DNA from: a virus
Taxonomy: Duplodnaviria > Heunggongvirae > Uroviricota > Caudoviricetes
Length of the DNA: 5,125 bases
Virus record (IMG/VR): IMGVR_UViG_2698536628_000011
Strand: one strand, 5' to 3'
Shown here: positions 595 through 3,945 of the stretch, one piece after another
How the letters are laid out: every line of letters starts with the position of its first letter
Numbering within the stretch: the first letter of the stretch is position 1
Translations under genes and position numbers: made by a program
Notes under the pieces: model-generated
Databases searched by the model: none
What the model was told of the DNA's origin: nothing
The model's input: only the letters and a program-made list of their open reading frames with translations

Positions 595-795
595 TTAATC
601 TTTCGGATAGATATCCGGTCTTAAGTCAGATTTCGTAATTGCACCTGACGTGCATTGCTCAAGTTTTTTAGCCAGCACAAAACTGGCTTTTTTATAACCA
701 TTGAAAACCAGCCGTAAGTAGCCTGGTGTTGAGCCAACTTTTCCGGCCAACTCGCCCTGCTGTTCTTTGGTTAAAGAGTCCCAATACGCTTTCAT
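595..795 (-). CDS. Cro-like small DNA-binding regulator (YdaS/Cro family), 66 aa
   Basis: Track ORF 595..819 (74 aa). I prefer the internal ATG at 795-793 because GGAGG (complement of 805-809) lies 10 nt upstream of it, whereas the 819 start has no Shine-Dalgarno. Product MKAYWDSLTKEQQGELAGKVGSTPGYLRLVFNGYKKASFVLAKKLEQCTSGAITKSDL has the size and HTH-like character of Cro proteins and is divergent from the repressor gene. Confidence 0.75.
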   Translation of the reverse strand: MKAYWDSLTKEQQGELAGKVGSTPGYLRLVFNGYKKASFVLAKKLEQCTSGAITKSDLRPDIYPKD

Positions 796-885
796 ACAAT
801 ATGTACCTCCAATATACATATTACATGATTAATATGAACCTTCAAGATACTTGTACCTTATCGGTACAAAGGTTTTAATTTCTTT
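796..885. promoter_or_regulatory. Divergent promoter/operator region between Cro-like and CI-like genes (OR-like)
   Basis: 90-bp AT-rich intergenic region. Palindrome TTGTACC-ttatc-GGTACAA at 851-869 (7 of 9 pairs symmetric). Second imperfect palindrome ATGTAcctccaataTACAT at 801-819. Candidate rightward promoter TTGTAC (851-856), 17 bp, TTTAAT (874-879) would start transcription at or near the ATG at 886, giving a leaderless repressor mRNA as for lambda PRM. Candidate leftward promoter on the minus strand TTGAAG (845-840), 16 bp, TAATAT (823-818), upstream of the Cro-like Shine-Dalgarno. Confidence 0.5.
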
Positions 886-1560
886 ATGAAAACAGTCCAT
901 GACATCCGGCGGTCTAACGCCAGAAAACTGAGAGATGGTGTTGGCGGGAATTCTTCCTTTGCCACCATGATTGATCGCGAGCCAACCCAGACCAGCAGGT
1001 TTATGGGAGATGGTGCTACTAAAAATATCGGTGACAGCATGGCACGGCACATCGAAAAATGTTTCGACCTGCCTGTCGGATGGCTTGATCAAGAACACCA
1101 GACCACGAACATCACAAAAAAACCTGATGTTTCAATCACTAACAAACAAATAACGTTAGTCCCTGTCATATCATGGGTACAGGCCGGAGCATGGAAAGAA
1201 GTTGGCTATTCTGAGGTTGATTTGAGCACAGCAGAAACTTATCCCTGCCCTGTACCCTGTGGCGAAATGACTTATATCTTGCGGGTGATTGGTGATTCAA
1301 TGATTGATGAGTACCGCCCGGGAGACATGATTTTTGTTGATCCCGAAGTCCCTGCCTGCCACGGTGACGACGTTATTGCATTGATGCACGATACAGGCGA
1401 AACCACCTTCAAGCGATTGATAGAAGATGGAACACAGCGTTATCTCAAAGCATTAAACCCAAACTGGCCTGAGCCTTACATTAAGATTAACGGTAATTGC
1501 TCTATAATTGGTACAGTAATTTTCTCAGGAAAACCAAGAAGATACAAAATAAAGGCCTAA
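886..1560 (+). CDS. CI-like prophage repressor, LexA/S24 peptidase family (autocleavable), 224 aa
   Basis: Track ORF 886..1560. C-terminal domain carries the S24 signature: Ala100-Gly101 (nt 1183-1188, WVQAGAW) as candidate cleavage site, Ser138 in GDSM (nt 1297-1299), Lys176 in FKRL (nt 1411-1413). Ser-to-Lys spacing of 38 residues is as in LexA and lambda CI. No Shine-Dalgarno upstream, consistent with leaderless translation. Followed by an intrinsic terminator. Confidence 0.9.
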   Translation: MKTVHDIRRSNARKLRDGVGGNSSFATMIDREPTQTSRFMGDGATKNIGDSMARHIEKCFDLPVGWLDQEHQTTNITKKPDVSITNKQITLVPVISWVQAGAWKEVGYSEVDLSTAETYPCPVPCGEMTYILRVIGDSMIDEYRPGDMIFVDPEVPACHGDDVIALMHDTGETTFKRLIEDGTQRYLKALNPNWPEPYIKINGNCSIIGTVIFSGKPRRYKIKA

Positions 1561-1571
1561 TCAATATTTAT

Positions 1572-1595
1572 AACCTGCTTCGGCAGGTTTTTTTA
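1572..1595 (+). terminator. Rho-independent terminator of the repressor gene
   Basis: Stem CCTGC (1574-1578) / GCAGG (1583-1587) with loop TTCG, extendable by A:T pairs, then a run of 7 T (1588-1594), 12 nt after the repressor stop codon. Confidence 0.7.
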
Positions 1596-1598
1596 TAC

Positions 1599-1627
1599 TT
1601 GACAATGTACCCTTGAGATACATAATG
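1599..1627 (+). promoter_or_regulatory. Near-consensus sigma70 promoter pointing rightward, away from the repressor gene (PL-like)
   Basis: TTGACA at 1599-1604 (6/6 consensus), 16-bp spacer, CATAAT at 1621-1626 (5/6 to TATAAT). Predicted start near 1633-1634. Sits immediately after the repressor terminator. Confidence 0.6.
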
Positions 1628-1632
1628 TATCT
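1616..1632. promoter_or_regulatory. Perfect 17-bp palindrome overlapping the -10 element and predicted start: candidate operator
   Basis: AGATACAT-A-ATGTATCT at 1616-1632, perfect dyad around the central A. Shares ATGTA/TACAT arms with the palindromes in 796-885 but in a different arrangement. Confidence 0.5.
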
Positions 1633-1633
1633 A

Positions 1634-2090
1634 AAAGAAACATGCCGCAGGCAAGATTAAACAAAATTTGGTTGTAACACGGCGTATGGCACATGCGTCG
1701 TTAGCGGTCTGGGGACGTTAAAGGGGACAATCCACTCCTTGCTCGGGCAAAAAAACCAGGTAGCCGGAATGTGCAAGTCAATGATGATGCTGATAAGACG
1801 CCTAACCAGCGCGGCGATCCGGTTTGACGCCTGGGAAGAGACCAGGGTGCAACGATGAGGGCATTTATGGAACCGCGACAAAGTGTGGTGCCGTAACTTG
1901 CTAAGTGCTCTCAGCGTTGTGGTAATCCGCGAAATGGCGCGGCGGTAAGTATGGCGGGGTTACTCTTTCCCCGTTGAGGACACCGGATTGTCAGGTTGAC
2001 CATACGCCTGAGTGACAACCCCACCACAACAGCCACTGCTTTGGCGGTACCAGTTTGTACACTTGCTTCCGGCTGGTACCGCTCTTTTTA
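1634..2090 (+). ncRNA. Candidate ~450-nt noncoding transcript or long structured leader
   Basis: Bounded by the promoter at 1599-1627 and a hairpin plus T-tract at 2044-2090. All three plus frames are broken by frequent stops between 1640 and 1980; the longest ATG-initiated frames are about 11-30 codons and lack a Shine-Dalgarno. Local hairpins at about 1829-1845, 1925-1940 and 1954-1972. No Rfam-type family recognised by eye. Could be a decayed pseudogene instead. Confidence 0.3.
2044..2090 (+). terminator. Terminator-like hairpin with U-rich tail (candidate 3' end of the noncoding unit, or an early terminator)
   Basis: 10-bp GC-rich inverted repeat GCGGTACCAG (2044-2053) / CTGGTACCGC (2073-2082) with a 19-nt loop, followed by TCTTTTTA (2083-2090). 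The loop is larger than in canonical terminators. Confidence 0.4.
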
Positions 2091-2159
2091 CAAAACAGAG
2101 AAGAGCATCACCGGACGACGGGCTCATAACCCAATCCAGCCGGGCGGCTGCCACCGCAG

Positions 2160-2285
2160 NNNNNNNNNNNNNNNNNNNNNNNNNNNNNNNNNNNNNNNNN
2201 NNNNNNNNNNNNNNNNNNNNNNNNNNNNNNNNNNNNNNNNNNNNNNNNNNNNNNNNNNNNNNNNNNNNNNNNNNNNNNNNNNNNN
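2160..2285. other. Run of 126 N (assembly gap or masked sequence)
   Basis: Positions 2160-2285 are all n. Nothing can be called here, and any ORF crossing it is not interpretable. Confidence 1.
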
Positions 2286-2455
2286 TATGTCAATCGCGGT
2301 GGTCGACTGACTATTCTGCAGGAAGACCAGGGACAATTACTGACTCTTGCCGGTGAACCTGACGGAAAACTCCGCGCAGCAGGTCATTAATATCGTTCTT
2401 AATTAACTGATTATTTATCTCATCACTGAATATCTTTATATAGTGAGGACTTATT

Positions 2456-3280
2456 ATGTCTCAGAACTTAGACGCAACCGCAATTAATCAAATCCATGCC
2501 CTTATTTCTGCTCAGGGTGTTAATGAAATTATCAGTAATATTGGTGCCGATGCTGTGGCATTGCCTGAGAATTTCCGCATTCATGATCTGGAAAAATTTA
2601 ATTTAAATCGCTTCCGTTTCCGTGGTGCGCTTTCCACTGCCAGCATCGATGACTTTACCCGTTATTCTAAAGATCTTGCAGATGAAGGCACCCGCTGCTT
2701 TATCGATGCCGATAATATGCGAGCCGTCAGTGTGCTTAACCTGGGTACTATTGATGAACCAGGTCACGCAGATAACACCGCCACCCTCAAACTGAAAAAG
2801 ACAGCACCGTTTTCTGCTCTGTTGTCTGTTAATGGCGAGCGTAACTCCCAGAAGTCACTGGCAGAATGGATTGAAGACTGGGCCGACTACCTTGTGGGCT
2901 TTGATGCTAATGGTGACACCATTCAGGCAACCAAAGCGGCTGCGGCAGTCCGTAAAATCACAATTGAAGCAAACCAGACCGCTGATTTTGAAGACAATGA
3001 CTTCAGCGGCAAACGCTCCCTGATGGAGTCTGTCGAAGCGAAGACCAAAGACATTATGCCAGTGGCATTTGAATTTAAATGCGTTCCGTTTGAAGGCCTG
3101 AAAGAACGTCCGTTTAAATTACGCCTCAGCATTATCACTGGCGATCGTCCTGTACTGGTTCTGCGCATTATTCAGCTGGAAGCGATGCAGGAAGAAATGG
3201 CTAACGAATTTCGTGATCTGCTTGTTGAGAAATTCAAAGACAGCAAAGTAGAAACCTTTATTGGTACTTTCACCGCCTGA
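2456..3280 (+). CDS. yfdQ: YfdQ-like prophage protein (DUF-type, function unknown), 274 aa
   Basis: Track ORF 2456..3280. Shine-Dalgarno GAGGA at 2445-2449, 6 nt before the ATG. Length and N-terminus ([21 protein letters not shown]) match my recollection of E. coli CPS-53 prophage YfdQ; this is recollection, not a search. AT-rich candidate promoter region directly upstream (about 2400-2440). Confidence 0.85.
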
Positions 3281-3314: not shown

Positions 3315-3408
3315 ATGGAAACGTAATTAACTCAATAATCACCGGATGGTGAGAGCTTCCTTTTAGCAGAATTCAGCGCGGTGCAGCGCATATAAAGTGG
3401 AGAACGAA

Positions 3409-3945
3409 ATGTCATTTATTAAAACTTTTTCCGGGAAGCATTTTTATTATGACAAGATAAATAAAGACGACATCGTGATTAACGATATCGCAGTTTCCCT
3501 TTCAAATATCTGTCGCTTTGCAGGACATCTTTCACACTTCTACAGTGTCGCCCAGCATGCGGTGCTTTGCAGCCAGCTGGTGCCGCAGGAATTTGCTTTT
3601 GAAGCGTTAATGCATGATGCAACAGAAGCATATTGCCAGGACATCCCCGCGCCACTGAAACGACTTCTTCCTGACTATAAACGGATGGAAGAAAAAATAG
3701 ACGCCGTAATCCGTGAGAAATACGGGTTACCTCCTGTTATGAGCACGCCAGTGAAATATGCCGATCTCATCATGCTGGCAACCGAACGCCGCGATCTCGG
3801 ACTTGATGATGGCTCTTTCTGGCCTGTATTGGAAGGTATCCCGGCAACAGAGATGTTCAAAGTGATTCCACTGGCACCGGGCCATGCCTACGGGATGTTT
3901 ATGGAACGCTTCAACGAGTTATCGGAATTACGCAAATGTGCATAA
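3409..3945 (+). CDS. yfdR: HD-domain 5'-deoxynucleotidase, YfdR-like, 178 aa
   Basis: Track ORF 3397..3945 begins at a GTG. I prefer ATG at 3409 because GGAGA (3399-3403) lies 5 nt upstream, giving 178 aa starting MSFIKTFSGKHFYYDK. HD signature present: His40, His50 and the His69-Asp70 pair in ALMHDATEAY (nt 3613-3618). Confidence 0.85.
   Translation: MSFIKTFSGKHFYYDKINKDDIVINDIAVSLSNICRFAGHLSHFYSVAQHAVLCSQLVPQEFAFEALMHDATEAYCQDIPAPLKRLLPDYKRMEEKIDAVIREKYGLPPVMSTPVKYADLIMLATERRDLGLDDGSFWPVLEGIPATEMFKVIPLAPGHAYGMFMERFNELSELRKCA

Follow-up and report, generated by a model that had tools for sequence, protein, structure and literature searches.

A noncoding unit headed by a conserved pseudoknotted RNA domain in the early-left region of a lambdoid prophage

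What is encoded in the roughly 450 nucleotides (nt) that separate the repressor gene from the early operon in IMGVR_UViG_2698536628_000011, an IMG/VR record of a tailed phage (Caudoviricetes)? The stretch of DNA that we analyzed, called the window here, is 5,125 nt long and holds the immunity region of a lambdoid prophage, as judged from a list of its open reading frames (ORFs) and from profile searches. The unit in question begins at a promoter, ends at a terminator hairpin and is, in the reading we consider probable, the untranslated 5′ part of the early-left operon (the operon of the PL-type promoter) of a prophage of the e14/cdtI/mEp460 type, from which a small RNA of about 175 nt is processed and in which a terminator gates the genes yfdP, yfdQ and yfdR. 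Its 5′ third contains a pseudoknotted RNA domain, A1, that is new, being absent from Rfam 15 and from the sequence-searchable literature. The last third belongs to a known class of prophage small RNA loci, of which it is a new allele, and has been glimpsed in the literature.

A structured RNA domain behind a repressor-controlled promoter

A sequence-only reading of this DNA had raised the possibility that the unit encodes a structured RNA, and covariation in alignments of homologs bears this out both for A1 and for the stem that follows it, A2 (coordinates of all features are in Table 1). For A1, the window was aligned with 44 homologs of less than 90% identity (45 sequences). In this alignment 97.7% of cells were paired and 17 of the 30 pairs showed changes on both sides, with 88 compensatory cells compared to 19.3 ± 5.8 in shuffles; the observed values were reached in none of 500 shuffles. 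Slid controls for the same structure were 27-45% paired. A covariance model made from the alignment scored the window at 126.9 bits. Two of the helices, S1 and S2, form an H-type pseudoknot, and three unpaired stretches outside the search bait, AGCGGUC, GGCGAU and the GGCACAU loop, are invariant. We conclude that A1 is a robustly supported structured RNA domain and that it is widespread.

Two further pairings within or around A1 fared less well. The candidate pseudoknot PK1, in which GCACAU would pair with AUGUGC, is compatible with the alignment, but its strands are invariant and lack covariation, which counts against it; since its 3′ strand is also part of the search bait, PK1 is unproven. 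A closing helix between the A1 flanks (P0) was rejected, as the cognate duplex (−3.6 kcal/mol) was no better than the non-cognate one (−4.3 kcal/mol). At one locus, L144, at least five repeats of a short hairpin resembling helix P6, with GGAAAGAC loops, begin about 70 nt ahead of the A1 start and reach about 600 nt beyond it; these would fit repeated binding sites for an RNA-binding protein.

A1 is preceded by a near-consensus σ70 promoter, which the sequence-only reading had placed right after the repressor terminator. The site matches the consensus at 11 of 12 positions, lies 10 nt past that terminator and is the best promoter-like site in the window; the record of phage Ayreon has a promoter annotated at the matching place. 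The spacer between its −35 and −10 hexamers holds an exact copy of the motif ATGTACC-N7-TACAT, whose sole other exact copy (801-819) lies in the divergent intergenic region of the cro-like and cI-like genes. Two exact copies compare with 0.01 expected, a count reached in none of 200 shuffles. Because the spacer contains this copy, the promoter carries a phage operator and is a repressor-controlled, PL-like promoter rather than a chance match to the consensus. Transcription would start near 1633, and a promoter scan of 1627-2090 revealed no internal σ70-like site. A perfect inverted repeat, GATACAT-A-ATGTATC (1617-1631), spans the −10 hexamer and this putative start. Besides the operator there is a second operator-like motif, a perfect palindrome, TTGTACC-N5-GGTACAA (851-869), between the cro-like and cI-like genes, which was flagged by the terminator scan.

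From the promoter, the unit runs for about 455 nt without a credible gene, as had been suggested. The ORFs within 1633-2090 encode 33-74 amino acids, and two longer frames start inside and enter a masked run of N. None of five scanned ORFs of 39-74 amino acids matched a Pfam family. A single ORF, on the minus strand (1960..2154), matched a PHROG family, phrog_3651, of unknown function; the same frame is annotated in phage cdtI as a 151-amino-acid hypothetical protein antisense to yfdP, and is shortened to 47 amino acids in mEp460. Deposited phage genomes carry mutually inconsistent "hypothetical proteins" on both strands of the RNA unit (L001 3680-3799 and 3901-4095; L002 3901-4356; L005 1462-1830 and 1872-2015), and such annotations seeded at least one PHROG family, phrog_3651 itself.

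These database records are what a protein-coding explanation, in which the unit would be a frameshifted or unrecognized gene, has to offer. Against it, the scanned ORFs have no Pfam hit, the annotated ORFs differ among near-identical phages with one truncated in mEp460, the A1 homologs differ by many insertions and deletions that are not multiples of three, and substitutions follow base pairing, not codons. We regard a coding gene as extremely improbable, and rejected a decayed protein gene on the grounds that the scanned ORFs lack Pfam hits and that the one PHROG hit stems from hypothetical ORFs that disagree between relatives.

The covariance-model check that the sequence-only reading had proposed gave no usable hit. 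With the 4227 families of Rfam 15, there was no match in the whole window at E ≤ 1, and only a chance CRISPR-DR hit in 1627-2159 at E ≤ 10. ARAGORN found no tRNA or tmRNA in the window or in L001, and the tRNA model RF00005 had no hit in the window. Neither A1 nor the hairpin was found in the literature by sequence-string search.

Exchangeable modules and the proposed working of the unit

Sensitive BLAST searches revealed that parts of the unit recur separately in other phages. Thus, the unit is modular, consisting of A1, A2, a cargo (module B), a terminator hairpin and module C. The two strands of A2 enclose a hypervariable insert, which in some other phages contains T-arm-like hairpins. A2 is present in the minimum-energy fold, its cognate strands pair better than non-cognate strands (−16.0 versus −11.4 kcal/mol), and compensatory alleles exist (UAGCUCAC/GUGAGCUA and AAAAGGCG/CGCCGUUU). 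It is a candidate RNase III-type processing stem.

Module B is predicted to fold as a cloverleaf-like four-way junction. It is about 90% identical to the segment directly 5′ of DicF in dicBF operons, and in Qin-type loci its closing stem takes the covarying form GUUGUGGC/GCUGCAAC. At locus L008 and dozens of IMG/VR loci, module B is followed by DicF; here, it is followed by the window hairpin. Other phages carry other cargo in the same slot. A tRNA-Arg(UCU) occupies it in 36 of 209 A1 contexts, those of epsilon15/phiV10-type phages among them. In L164 (1077-1203), a 127-nt tRNA with an insertion and a CAU-type anticodon loop lies in the slot behind A1 and A2, while in L203 (1769-1983) a match to STnc100 at the gathering score (47.7 bits) fills the cargo-plus-terminator slot. 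In mEp460-type prophages, the slot holds a different insert of about 110 nt. We also noted that phage P1, after trnA-trnT (L004 620-1000), has an A2-like 10-bp stem around a hairpin and a canonical T arm (GAGGGTTCGAATCCCTAC) without A1. It is followed by cargo-like units closed by GTTGTGATGAAG/CTTCACAAC and sequence like the cargo of sRNA-17, a prophage small RNA considered below.

The hairpin and T tract that the sequence-only reading saw at the end of the unit are present as described. The 10-bp stem pairs GCGGTACCAG (2044-2053) with CTGGTACCGC (2073-2082), followed by C and TTTTT (2085-2089), and folds at −21.2 kcal/mol. A simple terminator scan misses this hairpin because its 19-nt loop exceeds the 8-nt limit of the scan. 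The hairpin begins with UUGGCGGU, its 3′ arm reads GGUACCGC-UCUUUUU, and it is closed by ACCGCC before the U tract. In all, 58 alleles with the pattern UUGGCGGU...ACCGCC-U(4-5) occur behind A1 or module B; this hairpin is one, and canonical DicF is another. The first gene is separated from PL by the terminator, which lies 61 nt ahead of the mask and, in unmasked relatives, about 120 nt ahead of the start of yfdP.

Directly behind the hairpin is module C, an element of about 95 nt with a covarying stem of about 20 bp whose 5′ strand takes in the U tract of the terminator. Within the stem lies a sequence resembling an anticodon arm, GGG-CUCAUAA-CCC, and the duplex is a plausible RNase III site for read-through transcripts. 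Module C also occurs after trnT in phage P1, and 51 nt of it (window 2096-2146) lie right after a tRNA-Arg downstream of the Q gene in Klebsiella phage RCIP0098.

Two RNAs from related loci suggest how the unit may be processed. DicF exists as a 190-nt species with a 5′ end made by RNase III 137 nt upstream of DicF, and as a 53-nt form made by RNase E (Faubladier 1990; PMC10448788); its 3′ end is formed both by termination and by RNase III (Faubladier and colleagues). The RNase III 5′ end of the 190-nt species coincides with the start of module B. For the sister allele, sRNA-17 of the mEp460-type prophage in E. coli K1 RS218, a length of 193 nt was determined by 5′/3′ rapid amplification of cDNA ends (RACE) and Northern blotting, with a 5′ end that begins GTTGTGGTGAATG (GTTGTGG) (Sun et al. 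2020, PMC7719688). Using the supplement of that paper, we placed sRNA-17 at this locus. Its 3′ end is exactly the window hairpin, as the supplement gives caccacaacagccactgctttggcggtaccag...ctggtaccgc, corresponding to window 2022-2082, for AP010953.1. The supplement lists AP010953.1, the genome of the window, as "degenerative sRNA-17", which shares only the last ~60 nt (PMC7719688). Replacement of sRNA-17 increased yfdP about 95-fold, and yfdR also rose (PMC7719688). For a gating role of the terminator, this is indirect support.

We therefore propose, with somewhat more confidence than doubt, that the unit works as follows. Once the repressor has left the promoter-overlapping operator, transcription would begin at about 1633, and polymerase would transcribe A1, the A2 stem, module B and the DicF-class hairpin with its U tract as a leader of about 455 nt. 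Part of the transcripts would stop at the hairpin and the remainder would run into yfdP-yfdQ-yfdR. A small RNA of about 175 nt (about 1916-2089) would be released by cuts at the A2 base and the closing stem of the cargo, the site at which RNase III generates the 190-nt DicF and to which the 5′ end of sRNA-17 maps. By analogy to DicF-190, the long species should begin at the closing stem of the cargo. The released RNA would share the build of DicF-190, sRNA-17 and STnc100, with a closing stem, branches and a terminator hairpin. The terminator, together with the module C stem in read-through RNA, would part the small RNA from the mRNA and gate the early-left genes.

Several points weigh against this proposal or against parts of it. 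The position of the transcription start, the sites of processing and how stable the ~175-nt RNA is are all deduced from sister loci. The authors of the sRNA-17 study propose that it has its own, ArcA-bound promoter, rather than arising by processing (PMC7719688). As their mutant carried a chloramphenicol-resistance (CmR) cassette (PMC7719688), read-through from the cassette is an alternative cause of the rise in yfdP. The DicF model RF00039 (52 nt, gathering score 48 bits) also has no match in the window at E ≤ 1 or in 1627-2159 at E ≤ 10, while the canonical DicF copy in L008 scores 76.7 bits with this model. Finally, the window lacks the 19-nt single-stranded 5′ region of DicF (UUAUCAAUUUUCUGGUGAC; UUUCUGGUGAC, target pairing), which appears as an alignment gap relative to Qin-type loci.

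Since in P1 and epsilon15-like phages bona fide tRNAs occupy these slots or adjoin them, and T-arm-like and anticodon-arm-like hairpins are found in A2 inserts and module C, the unit could be viewed as a graveyard of decayed phage tRNA genes and spacers in which only the terminator matters and the rest drifts. That neither ARAGORN nor the Rfam tRNA model detects a tRNA in the window agrees with such decay. However, compensatory changes preserve helices in A1, A2, the module B closing stem and module C across many alleles, A1 is 95-99% identical in more than 1200 E. coli genomes and recognizable across genera, and the sister allele yields a stable RNA. The covariation in particular makes pure tRNA-gene decay unlikely, and we give this explanation very little weight.

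The prophage itself has close relatives. Positions 1560-2159 are 100% identical to a prophage in E. coli O26:H11 strain 11368 and 97.5-99% identical to phages cdtI, Ayreon and 2H10 and a series of Stx2c phages. Comparison with the identical O26:H11 prophage, and with phages Ayreon and cdtI, revealed that 126 N replace 325 nt (L130 3801-4125; L001 4101-4425), such that coordinates to the right of the mask are offset by 199 nt relative to the real locus. Behind the mask lie the 3′ arm of module C and the ribosome-binding site of yfdP with about 258 nt from the start of that gene; the RefSeq record of the O26:H11 relative has no RNA gene annotated there. YfdP matches phrog_204, of unknown function, and has no detectable Pfam domain. 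Beyond the N run, the window also contains a gene resembling 3′-phosphoadenosine-5′-phosphosulfate (PAPS) reductase, along with the yfdQ- and yfdR-like genes. The same prophage carries C4 antisense RNA (83.6 bits) and isrK RNA (67 bits) in or beside a Rha-family regulator gene, at L130 1096-1284 on the minus strand; this is outside the window, whose position 1 lies about 360-545 nt further right.

Table 1. Features of the window, in window coordinates
Feature	Position	Strand	Basis or remark
cro-like gene	595..819	minus	ORF list
cI-like repressor gene	886..1560		Peptidase_S24 domain (Pfam)
Intrinsic terminator of cI-like repressor gene	1572..1596	+	hairpin 1572-1589, 7 pairs, then T run
PL-type σ70 promoter, TTGACA-16 nt-CATAAT	1599..1626	+	11/12 matches
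Operator ATGTACC-N7-TACAT in −35/−10 spacer	1605..1623		exact-copy search
5′ leader segment	1633..1678	+	final 13 nt (AUUUGGUUGUAAC) common to phage P1, there directly after tRNA-Ile2
A1 conserved pseudoknotted RNA domain	1679..1853	+	covariance model and covariation
A1 helix P1	1680-1684/1696-1700
A1 candidate pseudoknot PK1 (GCACAU with AUGUGC)	1689-1694 with 1769-1774
A1 helix P2	1704-1711/1757-1764
A1 helix S1	1799-1801/1809-1811		fourth consensus pair 1798/1812 is A-C in window
A1 helix S2	1804-1807/1821-1824
A1 helix P6, GAAGAGA loop	1830-1834/1842-1846
A2 stem	1854..1915	+	5′ strand 1854-1865 GAUGAGGGCAUU, 3′ strand 1903-1915 AAGUGCUCUCAGC, hypervariable insert enclosed
Module B cargo	1916..2030	+	closing stem GUUGUGGU (1916-1923) with ACCACAAC (2023-2030)
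Linker, DicF-class terminator hairpin and U tract	2031..2089	+	unit 3′ end
Module C, visible 5′ half	2085..2159	+	3′ half masked; full element L001 4026-4125
N mask	2160..2285		comparison with unmasked relatives
yfdP 3′ end, first gene of early-left operon	2286..2390	+	RefSeq annotation of L130
yfdQ	2456..3280		downstream of yfdP
yfdR	3397..3945		downstream of yfdQ

Spread of A1 and its possible role

A 19-22-nt core of A1, GGTAGCCGGAATGTGCAAG, has matches in at least 240 IMG/VR contigs and is also found in prophages of Kosakonia, Citrobacter, Klebsiella, Kluyvera, Phytobacter, Superficieibacter and Erwinia. The A1 homologs form 105 clusters below 93% identity, and window-type A1, at 95-99% identity, is present in 1261 of 5426 complete E. 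coli genomes. No annotated feature lies beneath A1 among the 14 matches listed, and the A1 region is unannotated in the RefSeq records that we examined. Each prophage has one copy, on the PL side only. In phage P1, where positions 1-50000 contain no second copy, the other weak matches (L004) are module C-like and cargo-like segments after trnT.

The surroundings of A1 are consistent with the earlier suggestion of a discrete noncoding unit in the position of a PL leader. In addition to the operator within the window promoter, a cI-type repressor gene lies directly upstream of A1 in 41 of 67 diverse contexts, and a strong promoter whose −10 hexamer ends 6-53 nt 5′ of helix P1 was present in 31 of 209 contexts, compared to none of 209 on the opposite strand. 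Terminator-like hairpins occur 90-800 nt downstream of A1 in 158 of 209 contexts in the sense orientation and 70 of 209 in antisense, and in many units an ORF starts 10-40 nt past the terminator. In P1-type phages, A1 lies between tRNA-Ile2(CAU), directly 5′, and ban, 3′, whose promoter in P1 is under repressor control. In epsilon15/phiV10-type phages, A1 is 167 nt 5′ of tRNA-Arg(UCU). Untranslated phage cargos of both kinds, tRNA and small RNA, share A1 as a 5′ leader domain. No protein family is constant around A1 across these contexts, the commonest real neighbors being immunity genes. This finding, together with the fact that the N gap hides the 5′ part of yfdP, speaks against an RNA-protein system with its partner in the gap, which the sequence-only reading had entertained.

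What might such a leader do? Since A1 occupies the nutL/putL position, close to the start site and upstream of terminator-containing RNA whatever the cargo, and since no apparent N-like gene follows it, a role in elongation or antitermination suggests itself. The idea that we prefer, though with less than even confidence, is that A1 acts in cis on polymerase or on the nascent RNA to sustain elongation through a long, untranslated leader that contains a terminator; it would then be a functional analog, not a homolog, of nut and put. Four observations count against this role. A1 is present in a single copy on the PL side, whereas nut and put flank both early promoters; it also occurs in epsilon15-type units that resemble self-contained morons; it is unlike put; and the sister small RNA, sRNA-17, accumulates in terminated form. 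Most of the remaining probability is shared by an independent functional RNA and by a scaffold for processing or stability.

The elongation idea can be sharpened and taken as the main function of the unit. A1 would then be a put-like processive antiterminator that folds on the nascent PL RNA and binds RNA polymerase, which would thereby withstand both Rho and the DicF-class terminator, allowing the early-left genes of a phage without N to be expressed on induction, with the small RNA cut from read-through RNA. The placement of A1 after PL and cI (in the 41 of 67 contexts, with promoters within 6-53 nt), the strong intrinsic terminator between PL and the first gene, the apparent lack of an N-like gene after the unit (YfdP having no Pfam domain) and the many units with an ORF start 10-40 nt past the terminator all agree with this. 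So do the location of A1 in P1 between a tRNA and ban and the long duplex of module C, which could free the small RNA from read-through RNA. Yet A1 resembles the HK022 immunity region neither in sequence nor by model search and differs from put in size and architecture, each prophage has a single copy, the sRNA-17 that accumulates in lysogens is a terminated RNA of 193 nt, and epsilon15-type units with A1 end in two terminators. In this strong form, the explanation seems unlikely.

The other possibility is that A1 is a separate functional RNA, merely co-transcribed with the cargo, such as a protein decoy or a ligand-sensing or self-processing RNA, so that the unit gives two products, A1 RNA and the small RNA. 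Invariant unpaired stretches combined with covarying helices and an H-type pseudoknot are typical of RNAs with a tertiary fold, the downstream partners of A1 are quite different (in P1, there is neither A2 nor cargo), and cleavage at A2 and the closing stem would free an A1 fragment. As no conserved partner protein is nearby and no known ribozyme or riboswitch model in Rfam matches, we judge it less probable again than the put-like antiterminator.

If we return to A1 as a leader that probably heads an untranslated early-left unit, a broader hypothesis can be framed, which is possible but which we would not expect to hold in full. A1 may define a new class of phage cis-acting RNA, either polymerase-modifying (through processive antitermination or anti-Rho activity) or another tertiary-folded RNA, that is the common leader of modular cassettes composed of a promoter, A1, A2, an exchangeable cargo (tRNA, STnc100, sRNA-17 or a pre-DicF module) and a DicF-class terminator. 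DicF, STnc100 and sRNA-17 would then be alternative cargoes of one unrecognized type of phage RNA gene, carried by about a quarter of complete E. coli genomes, P1 and epsilon15-like phages. Were A1 to modify transcription, put would no longer be the only kind of antiterminator RNA that is independent of protein, and early-left expression in N-less lambdoid prophages of pathogenic E. coli (O26, O157 Stx2c phages and the cdtI phage) would be explained. Should A1 instead be a functional RNA in its own right, the E. coli pangenome would hold a widespread but uncharacterized element. In either case, annotation is affected, as several deposited phage records call hypothetical proteins on the RNA unit.

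Comparison with known systems

Among known phage RNAs, the antitermination sites put of HK022 and nut of lambda lie in the same place as A1. Like putL/putR and nutL, A1 lies just past a repressor-controlled early-left promoter and before terminators and early genes. HK022 put is a cis-acting RNA of about 70 nt, consisting of two stem-loops and a triplex, that needs no phage protein and suppresses terminators through the zinc-binding domain of the β′ subunit. A1, at about 175 nt, has five helices and a pseudoknot. As the A1 model found no match in the HK022 immunity region (L372) at E ≤ 1, and in view of the size and architecture, homology of A1 to put was rejected. With lambda nut, the likeness is loose: helix P6 (stem CCUGG/CCAGG, loop GAAGAGA) is somewhat boxB-like, and we saw no boxA by eye. 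Further, the first gene after the unit is yfdP, which lacks a Pfam domain, belongs to a PHROG of unknown function and does not appear to be N-like.

GOLLD and ROOL are large, structured noncoding RNAs of unknown function that are carried by phages and often lie beside tRNA genes. Their Rfam models have no match in the window, and A1, found in phages of Enterobacteriaceae, is much smaller. Other recently described prophage small RNAs, svsR, HnrS and the Pas RNAs, were set aside, as they map elsewhere or show nothing that ties them to the locus.

A1 is itself a component of phage tRNA units. They include the trnI-ban region of P1 and the units of epsilon15 and phiV10, and in phiV10, the tRNA is followed by a DicF-class terminator hairpin. 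The window differs in having no tRNA, the slot being taken by the cloverleaf-like module B. STnc100 (RF02076), an enterobacterial small RNA, has the same build of closing stem, branches and terminator hairpin; it has no match in the window at E ≤ 1 or in the unit at E ≤ 10.

The resemblance to DicF is one of position and design. The window hairpin lies in the DicF position, sharing the 5′ arm UUUGGCGGUAxCAGUUU and the U tract and differing in the 3′ arm and loop, and both RNAs belong to early-left operons of lambdoid prophages whose promoters are repressor-controlled. However, the window unit is headed by A1 and A2, while the Qin-type operon is headed by ydfABC, and A1 is absent from 95 Qin-type loci. 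A degenerate A1 5′ of DicF in Qin-type operons, suggested by a likeness seen by eye, was accordingly dismissed, as the A1 model matches nothing in those 95 loci. We conclude that the window hairpin is a DicF-class relative by position and architecture, and is not DicF by the family's own model. The remark in the sequence-only reading that the unit was not recognized as a known RNA family therefore stands for A1, which is in no Rfam family and in no paper by sequence. It does not extend to the 3′ ~175 nt, a positional homolog of the 190-nt DicF that shares the closing stem, linker and hairpin with sRNA-17.

The sRNA-17 locus and that of the window have the same arrangement between a cI-type repressor gene and yfdP, the same A1/A2 leader, closing-stem ends, linker and terminator hairpin. 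The full 193-nt sequence of sRNA-17 is not matched in the window, as the ~110-nt interiors of the cargo are unrelated (module B in the window, GUGAAUGCGCAGGCUGAUGCG... in sRNA-17). The sRNA-17 paper describes neither the upstream A1 domain nor a relation to DicF, and the link that joins DicF, sRNA-17, STnc100 and the phage tRNA units, a common leader and slot, is not stated in the literature that we consulted on those RNAs. While DicF, STnc100 and sRNA-17 have each been studied as separate prophage small RNAs, this locus shows one modular build, which in many phages, including the classic model phage P1 upstream of ban, is headed by a pseudoknotted domain that we found described in neither databases nor the searchable literature.

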